Shown here: piece after piece, positions 12,166-50,184 of the stretch
How the letters are laid out: each line of letters begins with the position of its first letter
Numbering within the stretch: the stretch's first letter is position 1
Assembly (NCBI GenBank): GCA_965153455.1
Contig: OZ234494.1
Span: 744,001-808,000 of the forward strand
Origin: Sphagnum compactum
Taxonomy: Eukaryota
Length of the DNA stretch: 64,000 nucleotides
Direction: 5' to 3'
The notes under the pieces: model-generated
What the model saw: the letters and a program-made list of their open reading frames with translations, nothing else
Told to the model about the DNA's origin: nothing
Database searches by the model: none
Translations under genes and position numbers: made by a program

Positions 12166-14391
12166 ACTAAACAACAAACACACAATTTTTGGTTCAATGA
12201 ACAATGAACCAAATGACCCAACTGGGGGCAACAACAGCACGTGTGCATGCACCCGAGGACTCAAGAAGGGATAACATGCGGGGTTTCCTAACATGCAAGT
12301 TGATTCCCAACTTATTCTCAACGGCATCACACTTTATTTCATATCCTTTGCCCAAAGTTGTACTCTTGTAATCTACCTAGGCCAAAGGAAAAGTGTACAA
12401 CTTTTTTTCTTTAATTAATTTTTTTTTTCCCTAATTGTGAAAATTAATTTATTGATGATGGGTCAATCATTAAAAGGTGCAATTAAACTTTGAGTGTAAT
12501 AAGTATGAATCACACAAATTATTATCGACTTTTGGCACAAATTATATTATTTTTGAAAATATCAAAAATTCCAAAGAGAAAATTCACAAAAAGAAATTAT
12601 TAGTTTTTGAATAAAATGAAGAATCTTTTGAAATATTATGGTGTTTAAAACTGGAATCTTCGAAATTGATTAAATATTGGGCAAATATGTGTAGTAGGCA
12701 CCAAGGTACTACAATATGCATCCAAACACCTTATAGACAATGGGTAAATAATACCTATTTTTGGCAACTTCAGGTTGGGTACATATGAGTACACAAAAAT
12801 TCCATGTTTTAGGTGCTCAAAAGTGATACTAATAATGAATGACTTTATGATAATAATTTATGGTACAAATGTATGTATGGGTTAATAATAATAATAGGTT
12901 TTTTATTTTCATATTTTGTTTAAGGTCAAAATTTGCCAAAATTTATCTTATTCATGATCACCACTTGAGCTACATGACAAATTTGAAAGAAAAAAACAAA
13001 AGCCCAAAAACACACACATATTATATATGAGCATATATAATATATTATTTTATTTTATTGTTTTTAAAAAAAAGGTATCTTGAAAATGAATGAATTATTC
13101 AGCAGATGTGTCCTGAAACTGCCCCTATAATAATAATAAAAAAAGGGGGAAAAAAAAGAGAAAAAAAGGCTGTATCCACTCTCACTACCAACTAAAGGGC
13201 GGTTTGTAAGTACCAGCACAATAGTATCATTGTTGTGAGGGGCTTTCCTAAGTACTTGTGTGTTTTGCCTCTCTTGCGTGGTTGCTTGGTTGCTTCCTCC
13301 TGCTCTTCTTCTTCTTCTTCTTCTCTTTTGAACTGCAATTTGCACCAATTTTGCATCAATTTTGTTTTGCTCATTTTTATTTTTTTTCCTGAGGTTGGTA
13401 AGGAGGAGAAGGAGGAAGAAAGATGATGATGATGATGAGGAGCACAAGGAGAAGATGACTAGTTGGTGTTCATTGCTGGTAAGCTTTAAGCAAATTTGTG
13501 AAAGATTTGTTTTGTTTTTTTTTTGGGTGGGTGGGGAAGACGTTGGAGGCTTCTTCTTCTTCTTCTTCCATCTTCTCTTCTTTGGATCCTCTTTGTAGTT
13601 CTGGGTTGTTTGTTTCAGTATTTGGAATTGGAGCTGCTATGTTCTCCCCCAAAAAAGGGAGAAAAAAAGAAAAGTATTGTTTTGAATTCTTTGGAGTTTG
13701 GGGCAGAAGAAAGCAGTGATTTGGGGGGGGGGGGGGGCGAGGGGGAGGGGGGGAGAAGAGGAGAGCTTGTGAATCTCCTGTGTTTTATTATTTTTCCTCT
13801 TTTGTTGATCACCCTTTTGTGTTTTAATGTCTGGAATTGTGTCAATTTTGTGCAGCTGCTTCTTTTGAGTGCTTTGGATTTTGCAGTTGCCAGCTTAAAG
13901 ATCATGTTGTAATCTTTGCTTATCTCAGTGGTACCCAATACTTCCATGAGTTTTTCAAGTTCCTGGATTCTCTGCCTTAGACCCATCTCTCTCTCTCTCT
14001 CTCTCTCAGTTGCAGTGCCTTTTTGATCTTTCTCAAAGTGCCTGAGACTTCAAAATCTGGAGGAGTAATAAGAATTCTTAGTTAAAAAGTGCCTGAGAAA
14101 TCAAGCTTCAGTTTCTTTTGGGGTTCTTTGTTGTTGACAGGTTGTCAGGTCAGAGATGAGAATGCTGATGACGAGATTCATCAATTGCAGCAGCAGCAGC
14201 AGCAGATGGGCAGCATTTGAATTCTTTGCAGTGGATCAGAGACTTGGGAAAAGGGATGATGATGTTGTTGTTATTCAATTATGTCAAATACTGTAGTAGT
14301 AGTGCAGGGTAGCCAGTGTGCTGCAACTCTCCTCCTGGTCAAGGAGGTTGAGCTGCTGCTGCTGAGTAGCCAGCATAGCTAATTTTGTGAG

Positions 14392-16464
14392 ATGATTTTT
14401 AGAAAGACCCACTACTCCTCTTCTTCTCTGCATCATTCTTCTTCTTCTTTCTCAGTAAGAGACTTAGGGTGTAACTCTGGAGGCGGTGGTCCAGCATATT
14501 TGTTGCCCTTGATGATGATGATGATCCGGTCTTCTTCTTCTTCTTCTTCTTCTTCTTCTTCGGTGTTGGTGCTAGTTCTGGAGGTTTTAGTATTATGGAC
14601 ATCTGTAATCAGAGCAGCTCAAGCTCGATCTACAGTGATGAGAGCAGCACAAGCTCCAAGTAGCAGTAGCCAAGGGAATTGCCCTCTTGATTTCACAGTT
14701 TTGAGCAACTTCCCTTACATAGTTCAACAGGCGCGTCTTCCAGTCATGCACTTGCAATGTATAGTTCTACTCAATGCACTGCAACTAGTGCTTTCAGTGT
14801 ACTTGAAACAGACAGGTTTCTTTCTCATCCCTACAAATACAGAGGCAGATTGCTTAGCGGCTTTCAATTCTGAGCTTCAGTCAATGGGGGCTGTAAACAG
14901 TGACATCGGGGCATTGTGCGGTTTCAATTTCTCACAGACGGCTCGAGGGCAAGATAATTGCCAGGGAATCCAACAGGTTTCAGATCTCAAGCGGCTTGCT
15001 GACCCTGCTAAACTGGTTTCTCTGAACCAATCTTGTGAGGGGGTGCTTGGGAATGCAAATGGTGACAATGTGCTTTGTGGTGGTTGCATCCGTGCAGTCG
15101 GGGTGCTGACCATGGATTTAGAATTGGCTGGAAATGGGTCCCAATCGGGATGCCAGAATTATTCTAGCATGTTTGCTGCAGCGATTGTGAATTTGGCAGG
15201 TCCTAGTGACACATACACTGCGGACTGCCTTTTCGATATATATACAATTCAAAACAATCACCGAAGCCTCACCATTCTCTATATTGTGATTGGAGTAGTA
15301 GGTGTGGGAGTTGTAACTCTGGGTGTTTCATTGTTCTTCTATTTCCGGCTGCGGAAGAGGAGACACAAGGAGCAGAAGGATTTCATCAAGCATACTACAG
15401 AGCTTCTGCAAGGTCCAATGAATTCTACTGGGGGTCTAGTTTGGTTCGCAATGGATGAAATCAAAACCGCAACGCATAATTTTTCCCGGGAGGCAATTAT
15501 TGGGTCTGGTGGATTTGGGAATGTGTACAAAGGGATGCTGACATCAGGGTCTGAAATTGCTGTGAAGCGCTTCAAGAATTGTACACCAGCAGGTGATGCA
15601 GAGTTTGTTCATGAGGTTGAGATGATTTCAAGTGTCCGGCATAGAAACCTAGTTGTTTTGAGGGGTTGTTGCGTGGCTCCAAGTGGTGGAGGGATTGAAG
15701 GTCATCAGAGAATTATTGTGTTTGATTACATGCGCAATGGGAGTCTCAAAGACTACATTTGCAATACCAATAAGCCGAGCTTAGATTGGCCAGCCCGACA
15801 CAACATTGCAGTTGGCATGGCACGAGGAATTGCCTATCTCCATTATGGAGCCCAGCCTGCCATAATCCACCGTGACATCAAAGGAAGTAATATCCTCCTT
15901 GATGAAAATTTTGATGCTCATGTGGCAGATTTTGGACTTGCAAGGTTCACACCTGACGGCAAGACTCATATTTCGACAAGGGTAGCTGGAACTTTTGGGT
16001 ATGTAGCCCCCGAGTATGCCTTGTATGGGCAAGTTACAGAGAAGAGTGATGTCTACAGTTTTGGCGTAGTCCTATTGGAGCTTATTAGTGCACGGAAGGC
16101 AGTTAGTTCTGAAACCAGTTTTTCTCTCATTACAGATTGGGCATGGACATTAATGAAGTCAGGGAACTGGACCCAAATCCTGGATGAGCGCATGGATACT
16201 AAAGGTTGTGGAGATGACATAAAGCAATTTATCTTATTGGCACTGTTGTGCGCTCATCCACAAGTTAACTATCGGCCAACTATGAGTGCGGCACTAACCA
16301 TCTTAGAGGGTCACCAACCATTGACCGAGATTCCAGATCGCCCATTGCCCTTAACATCAGAGAGAGATGAGATTGAGAGTGCTGTTAGGTCATCACAGCA
16401 GCTTTCTAGTGATGGAGGTTTTCAACCCTCTACATCTGGCTCTTCTGAAGGGAACACTGCTTAG
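14392..16464 (+). CDS. Intronless receptor-like Ser/Thr kinase with Cys-rich SPARK-type ectodomain (RKF3-like)
   Basis: 690-aa ORF: hydrophobic leader, CPLDF...CLAAF...C ectodomain, TM (ILYIVIGVVGVGVVTLGVSLFFYF) then RLRKRR, kinase motifs GSGGFGNVYKG, AVKRFKN, HRDIKGSN, DFG, GTFGYVAPEY; EGHQRIIV and LITDWAW are typical of RKF3-like kinases. True start may be the Met run near 14512. Confidence 0.93.
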   Translation: MIFRKTHYSSSSLHHSSSSFSVRDLGCNSGGGGPAYLLPLMMMMIRSSSSSSSSSSSVLVLVLEVLVLWTSVIRAAQARSTVMRAAQAPSSSSQGNCPLDFTVLSNFPYIVQQARLPVMHLQCIVLLNALQLVLSVYLKQTGFFLIPTNTEADCLAAFNSELQSMGAVNSDIGALCGFNFSQTARGQDNCQGIQQVSDLKRLADPAKLVSLNQSCEGVLGNANGDNVLCGGCIRAVGVLTMDLELAGNGSQSGCQNYSSMFAAAIVNLAGPSDTYTADCLFDIYTIQNNHRSLTILYIVIGVVGVGVVTLGVSLFFYFRLRKRRHKEQKDFIKHTTELLQGPMNSTGGLVWFAMDEIKTATHNFSREAIIGSGGFGNVYKGMLTSGSEIAVKRFKNCTPAGDAEFVHEVEMISSVRHRNLVVLRGCCVAPSGGGIEGHQRIIVFDYMRNGSLKDYICNTNKPSLDWPARHNIAVGMARGIAYLHYGAQPAIIHRDIKGSNILLDENFDAHVADFGLARFTPDGKTHISTRVAGTFGYVAPEYALYGQVTEKSDVYSFGVVLLELISARKAVSSETSFSLITDWAWTLMKSGNWTQILDERMDTKGCGDDIKQFILLALLCAHPQVNYRPTMSAALTILEGHQPLTEIPDRPLPLTSERDEIESAVRSSQQLSSDGGFQPSTSGSSEGNTA

Positions 16465-41788: not shown

Positions 41789-42749
41789 TCATGTTCTTAG
41801 AACTCTGTAAGCAGCAAATCTAAGCAAACTCTGTATGAGTTCGCTTAGATTTTCAATCACCCCACCCATCTCAATTTCAAGTTTCTCTTGAGATCCTTTT
41901 GAGACCTGTTAAAACACAATTCTTGGGCAGGTCAAGGTGAGAGCACTGCAAGAGTTAAGGTTTGTGAGGTTTGTGCACAAACTTCCCATAAGATTGAATA
42001 TAAACTTTTGGTAGAGGACTTGCGCAAAGAGGTTCTCAATTACATCATCTTTTATGTCTTATTTGCTTCTAGAAATTTCTTTGTTTTCCTTGTCAATGAT
42101 TTACCATTCTTGTACGCCTTTTAGGCACATCTTGGTGTCATCACATGTGGATTGATTTTGAAGGACAATTTTGACAGCAGCAAAGCTTGTGGCAGGACAT
42201 GAGAAATTGTGTTAAGGGGAGCTTGGTTTTTGAAATGCAACAAGATTGTGCAAGAGATGGTAACTTTGAAGGGTAGTAAGCAACAAGGTGAATTTGAAAT
42301 GCAACAAAGTTGTGGGACACTAAGAATTTTGAGGAGCAAACATGAAGAGGAAGGAGTGGCAAATAATGATAGCTGGTTGTCAAAGCACTTAAAAAGAGCT
42401 CTTAGCTTGTAGGACAAGGTGAAGAATGAAAGGGGGGCACCCATGTGTCCTCAACATCTCCTAGCTTGTGTAACACTTGCCTTTGAGGGTCAATGTGAGG
42501 CATCACTGAATAATAAAAAGGGGGTATCCTACCTATTCTATATGTCTATTTATATGTCACATACCCTTTGCTTTCCATGCTCTCACCAGGTCATTTGGAG
42601 TCACCACAATCAATCATTCCTTAGGCTGGTCAACCCATGTCCTCAAATGTGTAAGCCTCTATGTTGAGTTATCACAAATGGCTTGTTGAATCGCACTGAT
42701 CTTCTTCAGGAGCACTGATCTTCTTGAGGGGCCTCGTTGGAGGAAACCA

Positions 42750-43579
42750 GTCAACGAAATTTGAAAGTGCATAGAAGGACCTCATCCTTGCAAAACTCAT
42801 CAATGTACTGCATAACAAAAGACCTGCCCTTGGAGCCATCCAACTGCTGCAGCACTTCGACATACTGCCATGTCTGCTGACTGCAATTTTTGATCATCCA
42901 ATCATGGAGATTTTTGCTTGTGTTGCAGTCCAAGGACATGCTGTAGCATTTTTAGAGTTTTCACAGTACTGGAGTGTGAACAATTTGTCCTCTCCTCTGC
43001 CTAGAATTCAATGTGAAGGAGCCCAACATCCCCATGACTAGCAAAACCCAGTGGTTTCTTGATAAACAAGGCACAAGGACAGTTCCATTGCTGTGGCCCC
43101 TTGGAAAATACATAGCTGCAGTCTTCTGCCAGTTGATTCTAGAACTGCATGGCAAGAAAATCATGTGCTGGATGATACATACTACAGCACGTGATTTTCT
43201 TTCCATGCATTTAGATCTGGCATCAACTGCATGGAAGCTCCAGCTCCAATAGTGAAATCCAGACCACACACAATATAGGGAAGAGTCTTTGGTTTAGTGC
43301 ATGACCATGTTTTGCAAGGACCACCTTGCAAATTTGTGTCTCCTTCTGGGTCTGGATACAGTGCCCCTGGCTGCAGGATGTGCCACTCCAGTATCTGAAT
43401 ATGCTTCTCTGTACTTGGCATAACAGGGCTGTGCATAGGTACCTCAACAGGTGGTCTTGCATGTCCTTCCTCATGAAGTGGGACAGTCTGAGAGTCCTTG
43501 AACATGTCCATAAAGTTCCCAACAGGAGTCAAGGACCACTCTGGCAGGATAGAAAATACACCTAGAACCATTTCTTGTG
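42750..43579 (-). pseudogene. Decayed Ulp1/C48-like cysteine protease domain downstream of the zinc-finger gene
   Basis: VLVPCLSRNHWVLLV...FTLNS...**...VEVLQQLDGSKGRSFVMQYI versus the Ulp1 pattern P....HW.L.V...DS...PQQ.DG.DCG.FV..Y; in-frame stops at 42961-42963 and 42952-42954. Confidence 0.65.
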
Positions 43580-46500
43580 TCACACTTGCGATATTACATT
43601 TGTGACATCAGTAACAGCAGCAGGAACAGCACCTCCTTCTATAGAGTCTGCTGCCTCGCATACTGCAGATGTAGGAGGAGGCTGAGTGGCCAGAACTGAG
43701 CGTGCAAAGTCAGCAGTAGCAGTATGGAACCCCCGGAGGGCTTCTATTAGCTTGACCTTGAGGTCCTTGTTATAATCTGCAAAGAAATTTTGTCAATGTG
43801 AGAATTCACTACAATGTACTGCAGAACAAGTACAGAAGGTGTTGGTGGTATGGAAAAGGATCTTACCTGCGGATTGGGGGAATATCCAGCCCATGTCCAA
43901 GCTCTCCCTCATCCGCAGTACATCATAGAACACAGCAGTAGCCTCTTGCTTGCGCCCAACTTCATTTGGTCCCTCTACAGGTCTGAACCAAAGTAGTTCC
44001 AGCTCAATCCTCCGTCCCATCTTCACCATATCAACAACACCACGACAGAATGATCTCACCAGCCAACTCCATGTTAGATCTATGATATTTTCTTGAGATG
44101 ATAACTGATATCCCAGCAAGCCCAGAAGATCTTTCCTGATGCCATCAGCAATGTCATCATTCATGTCCATGTGGGGGAAGTAAAGGAAGCCCATGTCTAT
44201 GAGGTTTTCTACTGCTATTGTAAAGCGAACTGACTCACTCTGGTTCAGCAGTACATGAACAATTTTTTGTTTTGATAGGCCTCTAAAAGGGCAGCACAGT
44301 GGTACCAAATGTCCTACTCTACCAAATTGAAAGAGCTTCAGTGCTCTGACCAAGGGAGGACAAGGGATATCTTCAGATGCAGTGACATCACAAGACTCAA
44401 CTAAGGCCAGCAGCTCTTCAGATGTGTGCTGCCAAGGTGCACTTGGAGTCCACTTAAGACTGGGCCCTGAAGTAATGCGATTCATCTTGAGGAATTGAAA
44501 CAGTGGCGACCAACCCCAATCGTTACTCTCCTTCTTCATGCATTCAGCCTTATCCCACTTCTCCAATTCCTTTTGGACAAAATCGTCCTGCTTGATGAGA
44601 ATGAGACGGTTTTTAGCTTCAATAGCAGCCCAATGCTCTCGCTGTTTGCCGAGAGCAGTTAAGTAAAGTTGAAATGCTTTGATCTCTTCTCCACGAGCCA
44701 TGGGATCTGCCTCCCCATTCTTCTTCTGAAATGCCTTGACTGTCTTTACAATGTATTGGTCATTATCAGTGCTTCCAGGGGCCTGCCAGAGAGACCATTA
44801 CATCATTGTATATCACACAAACCCTAATTTGTCATGCAAGACTGGAGGAAATATAGCAAATGAAATATGAAAACATGTTGAAAGCTTACCCCAACATCAG
44901 TGCGAAAGAGATACTGCCCATATGCCTTGAAAATACGTTCTGCAAGGATCTCCTGGCTTTGCAGACTAAGCATTGCCTCCATAGCTGCTTGAGGGTCCTT
45001 TAGAAGTTCAGAGTTTATGATCTCAGTGGTGTGTTCTGCAAGAAGGTAGAGTCCACTAGGAGGACAGTCCACTGAGGGAGACAAATCAGCACCATTACCC
45101 ACATTCAATGCCAACGGGAACTTCTTCTGGGCTGCTCTCCTGGCATTTGCCTCCAATTCCTCCCTAGTCTTGGGCAAGGAAAGCTCCATTTCTGGCAGAG
45201 CTCTATGAGGCTTCAGAGATGGGACAGTGGCTACAGGGTACGCTCCCTTACGGTCAGGTACTGCATGTGGAGGAAGTAATTTTGTCTTAGGGTGGTGAAT
45301 GGCACTCCTTTGCTGGGAAGGTCCTGCCAGAGAGGTCACTGCCTGTGGTTCTGCACACTGCATCTGTGTCATGTAAAGTTGAATAGAATTCTGCTCCTTT
45401 TCTCTTCGGGGTTTTTTCTGGTGTCCTGGAGTATCATCAAAGTCAATGTCCGTCTCACTATCCACCAATGGAGACAATACCACAGTACCCTTGGCCTCCA
45501 TGTCATCCTTCCTCCTGCTCTTCACCTCCTTCTTTATCCGCTCCTTCTGCTTCTCTGATTTCCCTTTGTTTATGTGGAGGACCTTGAAGTCCTGTCCCTG
45601 TGTTGCTGCACCATTATCATCCTCAGGTGGTGGTGGAGGCAACACAGGGTAGGTCAACTTGTGTTTCTCAAACACAGCTTTGATCTCCTTCTTGTCACAG
45701 AATGGGTACATTTTGAGGTACTGTCCACTTCCAGGAGGTCGTTTTGGGCACTCGTTCTTAATCCTATGGTAGGAGAGTGTGGCCTTGTCCTTAAAATCTT
45801 CCTCGCAGTACATGCAAAAGAAGGGGATCCTAGAGGTCCATCCAAGCTGACTCCTTCTACAGAACTGGTGCACCTCTATAATCAGATACTCAAATTCTGA
45901 CTCAGTAAAATATCCCTCAAAAGGGCCTTGCCTGCATTGTTTGAATGTGCATTTCCGAACTCGCTCTCTGCCATCCTTGCCTGCCAGTACCTGTTGCATA
46001 GTACTCTAAACCTTAAGGTGGGATATTGGTTTTAGTGCTAAACCATAATACCCTAAACCCCAGCAGCTGTAAATCATGGCAGTCTTGCCTCTCTTTACTG
46101 AAACAGGACCACATGTGCAACCTCAAGCTTGAAAATTATGTTGTACCCTAGACCCCAATGCATTAACCCCAGCAAGCAGTTGTAATCATCCTGTGTCCTG
46201 TGTGTTTCCCGCAAAACCTGGACATCTGCAACTTCTACGATGCTGAAATGTAGACCAAGTCTGTTCGTGCTATAACCAGGACGTCTGCAACTTCTACCAT
46301 GATGAAACCTAGACCAAGTACCTTGAAAAGTAAACCCTAAAATCTCCAAAACCTTGATACCACCCTACCCAGAACACCAATTTTGCAGAGGAAATGAGAG
46401 AAAAGGCAGGGTATTGAGAACTCGCCCCTTCAACCCAGCCTGGTGGTGAAGTCTTCATCAGTAGAAGTTGCTGTGACGTCAAAGCCCTAGTGTCCAGAAT

Positions 46501-46677
46501 GAAGGCATTCTGCCGGAGCTTCCCCAGAAATTCATTTCGCATAGGATGGCTGGAGGAGACCTGTGTCATCTCCTTCATCATCTTTGACATCTTCACGACC
46601 TCCATGTCCTGACTACCTTCGTGTTCTCCCTCCTCCCTGATCAAGCTTTCTGAAGTACCTTCGCTCCTGCTATCCAT
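43580..46677 (-). CDS. Unassigned ~840-aa protein with C2HC-type zinc-finger motifs; possibly transposon-derived
   Basis: Exons 46677-46369, 45990-44890, 44782-43867, 43776-43580 total 2523 nt, open and phase-compatible with GT-AG ends. Motifs CTFKQC-x21-HQFC and CMYC-x12-H-x5-C; basic/acidic NLS-like stretch. Start codon uncertain; further upstream exons possible to ~48.6 kb. Confidence 0.7.
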
Positions 46678-48547
46678 TGATAGTACTTCCTGGTTTGTCC
46701 TAATCTGTATCCCATCAACCTCATTCCCCTCATCAACACTTTCACACACCAAAGATTTACATATACCTGCAAGATCTCTGGCACAAAGAATGAACCAGAA
46801 CCAGAAACAGGAAGTATGCTAGTGTGGAAAAACTATATATTCCAGTGTGGAAAACGATTCCATCAAAATCATACTGTGCTCAACAGGAGGACTGAGAAAG
46901 CACCTTATTCATTCTGCTACAAGATCAAGGGACTAAATCACCCGTTGCTTCTTCTGAGATGAGGGTGCTCAATGCTGTCCAACAATTGCCTTATCAGAGG
47001 GCAGCTGAATGAGACCTTCCTTCTCACCAGACAGCAGCTCCCTGTGGCAAAGAACATTTTCCTTGTCAAAGCCATAGCCAGTGAGAGACAAAAAAATTAA
47101 GAGAATTACCTCCCAAGTCAGGCAAAAACTCATACAAGGATCAATGGATATTGACTCAGGTTTCTGCTACAAGTCCCCAAAAATGTCATCACAGAACATA
47201 TGAGCTGAATGCTCACTCTGAGATCCATGCATGGTAAGTATTGCAACAGATCAGAAGTAAACTGGTAACATCTGTGAGAGTTTAACAATGAGCAGCAACT
47301 GCATCAACAGAAAATGGGTATGGCCAAGCAAGATTCTACCAACTGATATTCAACCATCAACCACCCACACAGTTCTCAAACCACACTTTCACTGACCTGG
47401 TAATACCATAAGAACCAAACTGTAGCTTGATGCATACAAGAGAAGTCCCTTTGATAAGAACCTGGAATACCCATATTAACCAACAACATCAGGCACTGGA
47501 AAACTTTAACATTAAGACCTTACTCTATGCAGGCATAGAATGGAACCAGGTAGAAGCTGCTAACTTTTTGAGCTCACCTTTGGGATCCTTCACCCAATCC
47601 TGGTTTTGGCAGTGCTTATACTGCTGCATTTCCATTTTGCAGTGCTGATGCTCATTGTCCAAACTTACCACATCATCATTTGTCTGCTTCACAAGATTTG
47701 CCACACCAGTGGCAGCAACAAATTGTCCTTTTTCTTCTGGTTGCTTGCTGGCATCATTAGCACTCAACCCTGCAAAGGCCCAGACCCAGAGCATCACATT
47801 ACAACTTCTCTCTCTCCAACTTGATATGTATTTGCAGCTGTTTGGAAACATGAGACCTGGCATACATTCTGACCAGATGTTCTTCATGCACAATATTGTC
47901 GTGATGTTGCTGCAGATGCTCTAAAGCATACAATACCATCTAGTGTGCACCACCAAATTATGGATCAACCAAATTCATCATCATCAGATTCTGAACAAAG
48001 CCTTTCTTAATATTTTGTTCCATCACTGACTCCAGTGAACTTTGGGAAGAAAACATGAACTCTTCGTGTGCTCTTTGCATGACCCCCCTTTTTTTGCAAA
48101 TATCAAGTGCAGTGTCAGCTCAAAAGTTGCTGCTGTTGGGAAGTGGGACGGGGCATTATTTTCTTTTCATTACTGGACATAACTTCAAGAGATAAACAAA
48201 ACTGGGACATGGCAAACAAACCCACCATAACTGGAGGAAAAAAAAGATGCAAAAAGCCCAAAAAAAAAAACCCAATAAAGTTCCGAGTAGGATTCAAGAC
48301 TTACATGAGCATTGGTTGGTGGATAACGCAGCAGCAGAAGAACTCCAACTGCTGTCACACTTGCGCGAAAATTGCAGTTGGAGGCCACCCACGGATCCTA
48401 AGGGGCACATCAAGGAAGCTTTAATTTTTAAACCCTAGAACTATAAAACCCTAAACGGCCATTTGCATGTAAGGTGCGAGACAACGTCGTACTGCACATA
48501 CATGTGCAATGCAAGTGGTAGGACATTTGTTGCAAGTCCGATAATGA

Positions 48548-48588
<41 letters not shown>

Positions 48589-50184
48589 AGAGATCCACAG
48601 ACACAGACAGACAGACAGACAGGGAGCAGGACGGCAAAGGGAAGGAAAACTGCGATGGGGGAGGGACTGCATGGATTAGGGCCGGGTTTGTGGAAACCGG
48701 GTCCCGGAGAAACGCCCTGTTCACGCCCTGTCCACGGACACGTGTAGGGTTTAAGGCGCCTGGGTACATAGTAGGTATGTTTTTATATGAGGATTTATGA
48801 AAGATGATATTTTGGCTTGTGTTCAAACTTGAGATTAGTTTTTATAGAGTTCCGAGAGCTTGGAAGCTTGTATTTTGGTTTCTTTCAGAGGATTACAAGC
48901 TTCAGGTTTTTTGAAGATTATATACTTTGGCGTGGTGAAATATTTGAATTTCCATTATTCCTTTTTTTGCCTTCCGACACTTTTTTAATGTAAATGGCAA
49001 GGCCAGAGTGTGACACAACAACCCTTGTTAAAAAGTAAGGGTATGAAATGCTGAGACTCTTTTGGGATTCAATGCACAAGGCTCGTGATCAATTTATACC
49101 TACAGTACACATAGCAGCAGCAACAGTACACAGAGCAGCAGCAACGACTAGTTGAAGGCGTTCAGGACAAAAAAAGGAGCGGGGCAAACTCAGTTTTAAC
49201 ATGTAGCAAAGCTTATAATGATAAAGTTATCGGTGAAGTCAGGAAAAGAGGAAAAGGCGGCACCAGAACCCCCTGTTTGGTCACACTAAGGGGATGAGAT
49301 TTCAAAAAACAGGGGGAAAAGGTGAACACCGGGTTTCAACGGGGCATGAAACTCAGTTTTAGCAGCAAAATTGAAGCTGATGATGGAATCTCACCTTGTG
49401 TCAATCTTAAAAACTCTTGGACTTAAAGAGATGCCCCTGAGCAAGACATGATTTCAAGTGGCAAAGAGCACATGTTAATCCCTACCAACAAGCTACCCAG
49501 ACCTCTAAAGCTTGTGCCATTCTCTGGAGCAGATGTTGAATACTCTTGGACTATGACCTAATTGAGGAATTTTGCTAGACATTTGCTGAAAATAACCAAA
49601 AGCCCATTCTAATGGTACATCTCAAGCACCAAATTTTAGAGGGATTTCAAACTTCACAGTCACAGAATATAAACACATTGGAGGTGCACCTGATGATATA
49701 CTTCTTGCTGTGGTCATCAGAAGGAATTTTATTGATCTTCTTCCCATTGCCATGTAAGATCACGACAGAGATGGTATTTGTCACAATTTGAATTGAGACA
49801 ATGTACTGCAAAACCTGTGTCATCAATGAGTGTCAACATCTAACCCAAATAGAAAACTTGTTCACCTGAGAATGAACCTGTTACAGTTGCTGGAAGGAGT
49901 TGGGGGCTAGGGGCATGTGGCCAAAGCTGTCAAGAACAGTTCAATTTGTCCAACAAGAGAAGTTTTGCAAGGATTGCACCAAACAGGACAAACAAATAGT
50001 TCAAACCTTTGCTACTGTTGGAACTACTTAGTACTATAGAATGGGATTACAGAACAAATGAGGTTGTTTGGGATCAACACCACCCAAACTTACACGAGCA
50101 ACAATTTTTTATCAGCAAATAAAGTTCCTGTAACATAAAAGCCATAACTTGTGAGATCAGTAAACAAGCACCTATCATCTACTG

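Follow-up and report, generated by a model that had tools for sequence, protein, structure and literature searches.

Does a peat-moss gene that couples a solitary zinc finger to a long stretch of unrecognised protein belong to the host genome, or was it brought in and spread by a mobile element? The question is raised by the minus strand of positions 43580 to 46677 in a stretch of 64,000 nucleotides (nt) from Sphagnum compactum (assembly GCA_965153455.1, contig OZ234494.1, positions 744,001 to 808,000), the whole of which is called the window here. An earlier note, made from the letters alone, had placed there an orphan zinc-finger protein of ~840 amino acids (aa) and had proposed a lineage-specific gene family of mobile origin. 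The findings of the present analysis favour the host: with a probability of about 0.55, we take the gene to be a functional peat-moss host gene of a small moss-restricted family, which encodes a putative nuclear nucleic-acid-binding adaptor. The adaptor role, the nuclear location and the binding of nucleic acid are properties that we infer as probable. The main rival, which we consider unlikely, is a transposon-linked history of the clade to which the gene belongs. Databases already contain the product of the gene as an uncharacterised protein, and the family and its two conserved modules appear to be undescribed; no literature was found on 12 family accessions, and keyword searching returned nothing on the family in the titles and abstract openings that it covered. 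Nothing here overturns current knowledge, and yet Sphagnum and other mosses are ecologically important and hold much lineage-specific gene content to which no function has been assigned.

The four long exons drawn in the earlier note (46677..46435, 45990..44890, 44782..43867 and 43776..43580) join into an uninterrupted open reading frame (ORF) of 2457 nt, that is 818 codons and a TGA, and all three introns of this model have GT-AG ends. RNA evidence was provided by two contigs of a metagenome collection, L001 and L005, and by the reads and contigs of four RNA runs (X1, X2, X5 and X22); 15 listed run rows, among the rows of 12 studies, are recorded as RNA. L001, which comes from an orthologue (98% protein identity), and L005, which comes from a paralogue (86%), match the exons without exactly the introns of the gene and are therefore spliced transcripts. 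The joint 43776/43867 is crossed by 9 polyA reads and 2 contigs, the joint 44781/44889 by contigs alone, and the joint 45989/46425 by 7 reads of X22 and 3 contigs, from 3 runs, with an RNA depth of 0 inside intron 1. Two more joints lie upstream of the start first drawn, 46704/46904 (3 X22 reads and 3 contigs, from X1, X2 and X5) and 47040/47577 (2 X22 reads and 2 contigs, from X1 and X5), and together with L001 they add two 5' exons at about 47769..47577 and 47040..46904. Of these, the former is a 5' untranslated exon, the first or nearly the first of the gene, to which nucleotides 2037-2224 of L001 map, and the latter ends with ATG-AAT-AAG|GT (GT donor at 46903), in frame with the ATG at 46677. 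The upstream ATG at 46912-46910 (M-N-K) is the likely start and adds 12 aa.

The following exon, 46426..46704, contains the ATG at 46677 and encodes an acidic N-terminal stretch. Its donor as used in the RNA lies 9 nt downstream of the GT first chosen (...GWVEG|VLAGK), so that the exon ends at 46426 and the protein becomes 821 aa long. The donor in question, at 46425-46424, reads GGG|GCGAGT in the window and GGG|GTGAGT in the orthologous contig L003 and the paralogous contig L007, and the GT donor 9 nt upstream of it is in frame. GC-AG introns are real in plants and occur at a low rate. X22 consists of polyA raw reads, of which 169/286 are 95-99% alike to the window; the reads are therefore derived from a related species, and the species of the window may use either donor. 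Downstream, the large exon 44890..45990 (367 aa) encodes the C2HC module (45990..45616), a K/R-rich stretch resembling a nuclear localisation signal (NLS), as had been claimed, a poorly conserved linker and a mid motif (...PSGLYLL...), as judged from the ORF, the alignment and an AlphaFold2 (AF2) model. The exon 43867..44782 (305 aa and 1 nt) encodes a conserved C-terminal domain, which is all-helical in the AF2 model and is supported by the alignment and the intron joints. The last coding segment, 43580..43776 (64 aa and a split codon, TGA at 43582-43580), ends with ...VTDVTNVISQV, as do the orthologous protein P0118 and the ORF of L001, and the 3' untranslated region (UTR), 42479..43579, extends to at least 42479, because nucleotides 4654-5934 of L001 map to 43780-42479 and X22 depth extends into the 42842-43112 bin. 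The ~840 aa of the earlier note is thus replaced by 818 aa for the exons as drawn and by 821 or 833 aa on the RNA evidence; the protein is probably 833 aa long, like the ORF of L001, which begins MNKIRTNQEVLSMDSR.

A (CT)n tract on the strand of the gene had been pointed out as a possible leader. The tract is present, as (AG)20 at 48553-48593 on the forward strand, and lies inside a stretch that L001 links with the transcript of the upstream gene. The polyA RNA depth is 0 at 47991-48261 and, therefore, the tract lies outside the main transcript and is not the normal leader of the gene; L001 and one X5 contig nonetheless join 47769 to sequence near 48300.

Comparison of the window gene, hereafter A, with the orthologue transcript L001 and with its paralogue B by the method of Nei and Gojobori gave ratios of nonsynonymous to synonymous substitution (dN/dS) that differ among the parts of the protein. 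Against L001 the ratio is 0.30 overall, 0.12 in the finger module, 0.19 in the C-terminal domain and 0.59 in the linker; against B it is 0.38 overall, 0.16, 0.43 and 0.64 in the same parts, at a dS of 0.22. The ORFs are intact in the A orthologues (P0118 and L001) and in B (L005). Collinearity with the window extends over 54940-33676 (21 kb) in the orthologous Sphagnum contig L003 and over 48342-33801 in L004. From this synteny, together with transcription, splicing and dN/dS, it follows that the gene sits in a stable position under moderate purifying selection, and the absence of transcripts or of purifying selection, which the earlier note had named as grounds for abandoning its proposal, is contradicted by the spliced RNA and by the dN/dS values of 0.30 and 0.38.

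The range of the family supports the lineage-specific gene family that had been suggested. P0118 (CAK9216446.1 / UniRef A0ABP0WN06; Sphagnum troendelagicum and S. jensenii) is an orthologue with 98% identity over exon 3 and the same C-terminus, and differs in its annotated N-terminus, which uses splice sites unseen in the RNA mapped to the window. When 1.84 billion representatives were searched by phmmer with P0001, the protein of the paralogue, 95 matched at E≤1e-3, of which 33 reached ≤1e-10 and 3 reached ≤1e-30. The organism look-up covered 20 of the 95 representatives, and the 4 clusters that carry names are all from mosses (S. troendelagicum, S. jensenii, S. compactum and Ceratodon purpureus). 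A word-based search with a Ceratodon protein gave four more proteins, from Physcomitrium patens, with 4/9 of its matches unnamed, and the protein search with profile A3 recovered just two close Sphagnum clusters. Among relatives carrying names, the family has so far been seen in mosses alone; had it been present in seed plants, far more than 95 matches would be expected. Sphagnum CAK9254546.1 (P0130), Ceratodon KAG0615240.1 (P0019) and KAG0575700.1 (P0125), and Physcomitrium P0162-P0164 contain both modules at 23-32% identity, while Ceratodon KAG0625061.1 (P0040) is without the finger module, and all deposited moss relatives are labelled hypothetical, unnamed or uncharacterised. Two stretches are conserved, the N-terminal module (about 181-290 of P0118) and the C-terminal domain (about 560-845), and a short PGL-aromatic motif precedes the latter in full-length members.

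A quick maximum-likelihood tree (30 rows, 487 columns), in which support was given only by the Shimodaira-Hasegawa-like approximate likelihood-ratio test (SH-aLRT) and the long-branch rows P0109, P0072, P0057 and P0031 are unreliable, divided the family into three deep clades. The first unites Sphagnum P0130, Ceratodon P0125 and the Physcomitrium proteins, with 76% identity between Ceratodon and Physcomitrium; the second joins A and B to a clade containing Ceratodon P0040 (SH-aLRT 92); and the third consists of unnamed sequences around P0017. The tree implies that diversification of the family would predate the split of Sphagnum from other mosses. No Pfam family scored above its cut-off in the exon ORFs, P0118, the paralogue, or the members of the sets A1 (51) and A2 (50), which together make about 100 rows, some common to both. 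A clear match to a characterised host family, which would likewise have spoken against the earlier proposal, did not come out of the Pfam, PDB-profile and Foldseek searches.

What, then, does the protein look like? Of the two Cys/His clusters that had been read from the sequence, the second is well founded. Its zinc ligands, C59-x2-C62-x12-H75-x5-C81 (C2HC), are kept in 47/47, 45/47, 44/47 and 44/46 relatives, respectively, and satisfy the classical C2H2-type spacing (C-x2-4-C-x12-H-x3-5-H/C); in the first cluster no ligand position is retained in more than 23/35 relatives, and that cluster is not conserved. The AF2 model of the module (m559f17ae1df6; predicted local distance difference test (pLDDT) 85.1, predicted template modelling score (pTM) 0.77) contains four strands, a helix, a beta-beta-alpha finger and a further helix, with the finger predicted as strands 57-58 and 65-66 and helix 69-77 (block pLDDT 85-93). 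The A2 profile matched single C2H2 fingers in the PDB (PRDM9, E 3.3e-6). In Pfam, the cut-off of the curated finger families was not reached (best PF24666, 19.4 bits against a cut-off of 27), and PF00096 matched 1/50 members at E 0.0081. The whole module found no structural neighbour with Foldseek (best E 0.44), and the VIA wide search gave 7 chains at Z≥2 with a best Z of 2.3. The finger therefore resembles classical C2H2/C2HC fingers such as those of PRDM9 and ZFP57 in its beta-beta-alpha fold and C-x2-C-x12-H spacing, but differs from classical C2H2 proteins in that it is single rather than part of an array, has Cys as its last ligand after 5 residues, and is embedded in a module of ~110 aa with four strands, a helix and an LKMYP motif. 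In the window protein, as in P0125, P0130 and P0017, strongly basic clusters can be read behind the finger module, and they may serve as nuclear localisation signals.

The C-terminal domain is the region that had been described as Trp-rich, globular-looking and unrecognised. A confident all-helical AF2 model was obtained for it (mf72a0408ac90; pLDDT 92.2, pTM 0.80; 11 helices, one of 63 residues). The Trp content is modest, W making up 10 of the 305 aa encoded by exon 3 and 1.5% of the whole protein. The region is indeed unrecognised, with no Pfam family at cut-off and no convincing fold match. The C-domain was without a match in the PDB-profile search (best E 0.3), in Foldseek against the PDB at E≤1e-3 (best 0.25) and in Foldseek against BFVD (best 0.18), and the ESM Atlas gave a best score of 0.76 for P0001 with no usable exon-3 match. 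In the VIA wide search the best Z of 6.2 concerned the long helix only (residues 7-83), which was matched with coiled coils, and VIA on the top 969 of Foldseek gave a best Z of 4.5, the globular part staying at Z≤3.5 with root-mean-square deviations of 6.5-9.6. The confident models of both modules (pLDDT 85 and 92) thus go together with the lack of any convincing PDB or viral match in the AlphaFold/Foldseek check that had been proposed, and, going by the model, a new fold of the C-domain is a possibility. A homodimer prediction for the domain, computed without an alignment, scored 0.00 and 0.00, which speaks neither for nor against a dimer.

The residues conserved in this domain, WxWSPL, PWxH..E, CP, RA..DM and W, are mostly W, P and G, and among such structural positions the polar residues E85, H119, E123, K149, R247 and D251 are conserved family-wide. 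This pattern bears on the idea that the C-domain is the business end of the protein, with an enzymatic activity or a site for small molecules or metal, and that the protein is not primarily an adaptor. The domain is the longest conserved part, its dN/dS between orthologues is 0.19, and P0040 (447 aa) and P0109 apparently hold it without the finger module. However, these short relatives are possibly truncated gene models, and no enzyme-family match was obtained by Pfam, PDB profile, Foldseek or VIA, so we judge an enzymatic or ligand-binding function of this kind to be distinctly unlikely.

The relation of A to B throws light on how the window copy came into being. The 10 confirmed Sphagnum loci in metagenomes represent 2 locus types, four at 98% and six at 86%. 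What A and B have in common is just a 3.7-kb block, about 86% identical and complete with its introns (window 46877..43187); with words as short as 7 nt, the 8-10 kb flanking it on each side still gave no alignment. The neighbours are also unrelated: A adjoins a CARME methyltransferase gene, and B is flanked by a formamidase-like gene on one side and an AAA-ATPase fragment on the other. The shared block begins inside the 5' UTR exon of B and ends inside its last coding exon and, therefore, one copy is a partial DNA-level duplicate of the other, and either may be the parent. The A lineage uses upstream exons that are absent from B. At the other end, an indel just before the stop of A removes a tail of ~130 aa that is still encoded in the 948-aa ORF of B (L005). 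This stop is common to all orthologues seen (the window, L001-L004 and P0118), and the ~390 nt of the 3' UTR of A at 43579..43187 are an out-of-frame relic of the B-type tail. In L001 this relic frame meets a stop sooner than it does in the window, and so the tail has lost its coding role in A. A GT..AG mini-intron around the stop, which would rescue the B-type tail, was rejected because the frame does not fit and no joint was seen. In B, the transcript continues by splicing (L005 3111-4374 / L007 11935-13963) into degenerate AAA-ATPase exons (Pfam AAA, E 3.7e-6), which by eye are proteasome-Rpt-like and represent either a gene fragment in the 3' UTR of B or a merged neighbouring transcript.

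It might be argued from the early stop relative to B that the window copy is a decaying duplicate, a pseudogene in the making, and the change of the donor from GT to GC in the window only and the joining of the gene to the upstream methyltransferase transcript in L001 point in the same direction. The shortened end is, however, common to all A orthologues, with the remaining 821-833 aa staying open; dN/dS against the orthologue stands at 0.30 for the whole protein and at 0.12-0.19 for its two modules; several runs contain correctly spliced transcripts of the gene; and the in-frame GT donor 9 nt upstream offers a fallback for the GC site. Decay of the window copy is accordingly a very improbable explanation.

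Could the gene have travelled as part of a transposon? Combinations of zinc fingers with Ulp1 proteases occur in Mutator-like, CACTA and Zisupton/KDZ elements, and the accessory genes of these elements resemble the window gene in having a Cys/His motif beside an unknown domain, few introns, gene-sized duplication and dispersed near-identical copies, the last as in the Ceratodon relatives. According to this explanation, the family, or at least the clade of the window gene, would encode an accessory protein that belongs to a moss DNA element not yet described or was recently domesticated from one, and copies would spread as gene-sized blocks that are captured or mobilised. It draws on the homology of A and B, which is confined to the 3.7-kb block with abrupt ends on both sides and unrelated flanks, on an inverted duplication that marks the 3' edge of this block, and on dispersed Ceratodon copies in the same clade as the window gene, namely four P0040-type proteins, 97-98% identical, on chromosomes 2 and 11 of one isolate and 3 and V of another.

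Unlike the Mutator-like, CACTA and Zisupton/KDZ genes, however, the locus showed no transposon domains, terminal inverted repeats (TIRs) or target-site duplications (TSDs), and in Sphagnum it combines an apparently low copy number with stable synteny. Transposase, Ulp1 (Peptidase_C48), integrase and reverse-transcriptase domains were all missing from the 4 exon ORFs, 7 flanking ORFs, P0118, the L005 ORF and the A1 and A2 members (Pfam, E≤0.01 to 1), as were the domains of Mutator-like elements, CACTA and KDZ from the scanned proteins. No convincing terminal inverted or long direct repeats bracket the gene within 38-54 kb, the best being arms of 20-29 nt at 76-83%. These scans and the repeat search uphold the absence of a transposase motif and of terminal repeats that the earlier note itself had reported. 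The comparison of paralogue flanks for TIRs and TSDs, which it had proposed, gave unrelated flanks, block edges that are not inverted copies of each other and no TSDs, and there were no long terminal repeats. A Ulp1 relic downstream (41.4-43.6 kb) was sought in five ORFs and rejected, with no Peptidase_C48 at E≤1, and a viral origin was likewise rejected, with no IMG/VR peptide-pattern match, no phage tblastn match and no BFVD fold match. The 10 metagenome loci fall into those 2 locus types, with synteny to related Sphagnum kept over 21 kb; splicing, expression and purifying selection were seen in A as well as in B; a sister clade is as well conserved among mosses as would be expected of an ordinary gene (76% between Ceratodon and Physcomitrium); and the Ceratodon pattern could stem from incomplete annotation. 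A mobile origin at this locus, as claimed in the earlier note, is thus not borne out, and a transposon-associated or domesticated status of the family or clade seems unlikely to us.

The inverted duplication just mentioned has a character of its own. It lies in the 3' UTR at 43120..43240 on the minus strand, exactly where the A/B homology ends, and is a hairpin of the relic coding tail, as recognised from folding and alignment. The predicted fold has an energy of -47.3 kcal/mol (z -5.9), and 0/200 shuffled sequences were as stable. The hairpin is transcribed, since it is contained in contig L001 and in the X22-covered 3' UTR, and it is conserved in L001, L003 and L004. Its 3' (distal) arm has a perfect 23-nt antisense match to the last coding exon of B in 3/3 orthologous loci; a 4-nt deletion shortens this match to 14 nt in the window. 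An inverted duplication of the target is the geometry proposed for young plant microRNA (MIRNA) genes, and by its arrangement the hairpin may be a nascent MIRNA-like locus; an Rfam miRNA-precursor model matched at 40 bits, below its gathering score of 69. If the hairpin did act in this way, one paralogue would post-transcriptionally regulate the other. The locus is in any case a compact one, in which a partial duplicate with new 5' exons and a lost tail carries an inverted relic antisense to the parent-type copy. A far-reaching picture, in which the modules would have new folds, the family would comprise moss-specific nuclear regulators older than the Sphagnum split, the clade of the window gene would still be multiplying by gene-sized copying and the hairpin would be MIRNA-like, is quite improbable as a whole.

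If the gene is a host gene encoding an adaptor, as we prefer to think, its product can be pictured as follows. From an acidic N-terminus the chain leads into the module of ~110 aa, in which, according to the AF2 model, a beta-hairpin sheet and a helix pack on the beta-beta-alpha finger, and then through the K/R-rich stretch, a fast-evolving and presumably disordered linker and the PGL-aromatic motif into the all-helical domain of ~300 aa, where the model has a helix of 60 residues packed on a helical bundle. Inside the nucleus the finger, helped by the basic stretch, would attach to nucleic acid or chromatin, and the helical domain would recruit partners. A and B go back to a DNA-level duplication of gene size, in which the introns were copied and the flanks were not; later A took new 5' exons into use and lost its tail by the indel. 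Several points weigh against this interpretation. A lone finger rarely gives sequence-specific DNA binding, and the ligand could be RNA, a protein or a modifier; the six polar residues of the C-domain could form a catalytic or ligand site. The dN/dS values of 0.3-0.4 represent no more than moderate constraint. The long helix filled the matches of the VIA wide search and, therefore, the globular part of the C-domain was weakly tested for its fold. The 821-aa form made through the GC donor is suggested by RNA from a relative and not from the species of the window. Finally, the abrupt edges of the A/B block and the dispersed Ceratodon copies would be compatible with a mobile carrier as well. The family is well suited to functional study, being conserved from Sphagnum to Physcomitrium, expressed, under selection and provided with confident models that have no recognisable relatives. 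Physcomitrium patens, in which gene targeting is routine, has clear homologues, and a phenotype there would assign a function to two unnamed domains.

Some minor observations were made in and around the gene. Intron 1 contains a 46-nt direct repeat at 46215-46319 (87% identical, spacing 59), and a related, rearranged arrangement was found in the paralogue as overlapping BLAST pieces. The upstream neighbour is a carnosine-N-methyltransferase-family gene on the minus strand (Pfam CARME, E 8e-106 on the ORF of L001), with exons at about 53123-50017, and L001 fuses these exons with those of the zinc-finger gene, which may reflect read-through transcription or an assembly chimera. Between the two genes, (AG)20 is followed by (ACAG)5 at 48553-48622, where reads are apparently cut. 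At 48804-49074 the depth of metatranscriptome contigs rises to 368 (X1) and 427 (X2), far above the 20-70 seen along the gene. Both strands are covered by polyA reads, the ends of many contigs hang loose at 48982 and 49017, and no Rfam match was found in this interval at E≤0.1. It resembles a repeated or highly expressed short element. Farther away, the forward strand at 14383-16464 holds a single ORF of 693 aa, apparently intronless, for a SPARK-domain receptor-like kinase, an ORF for a legumain-type peptidase C13 lies at about 56871, and the surrounding ORFs are plant genes.

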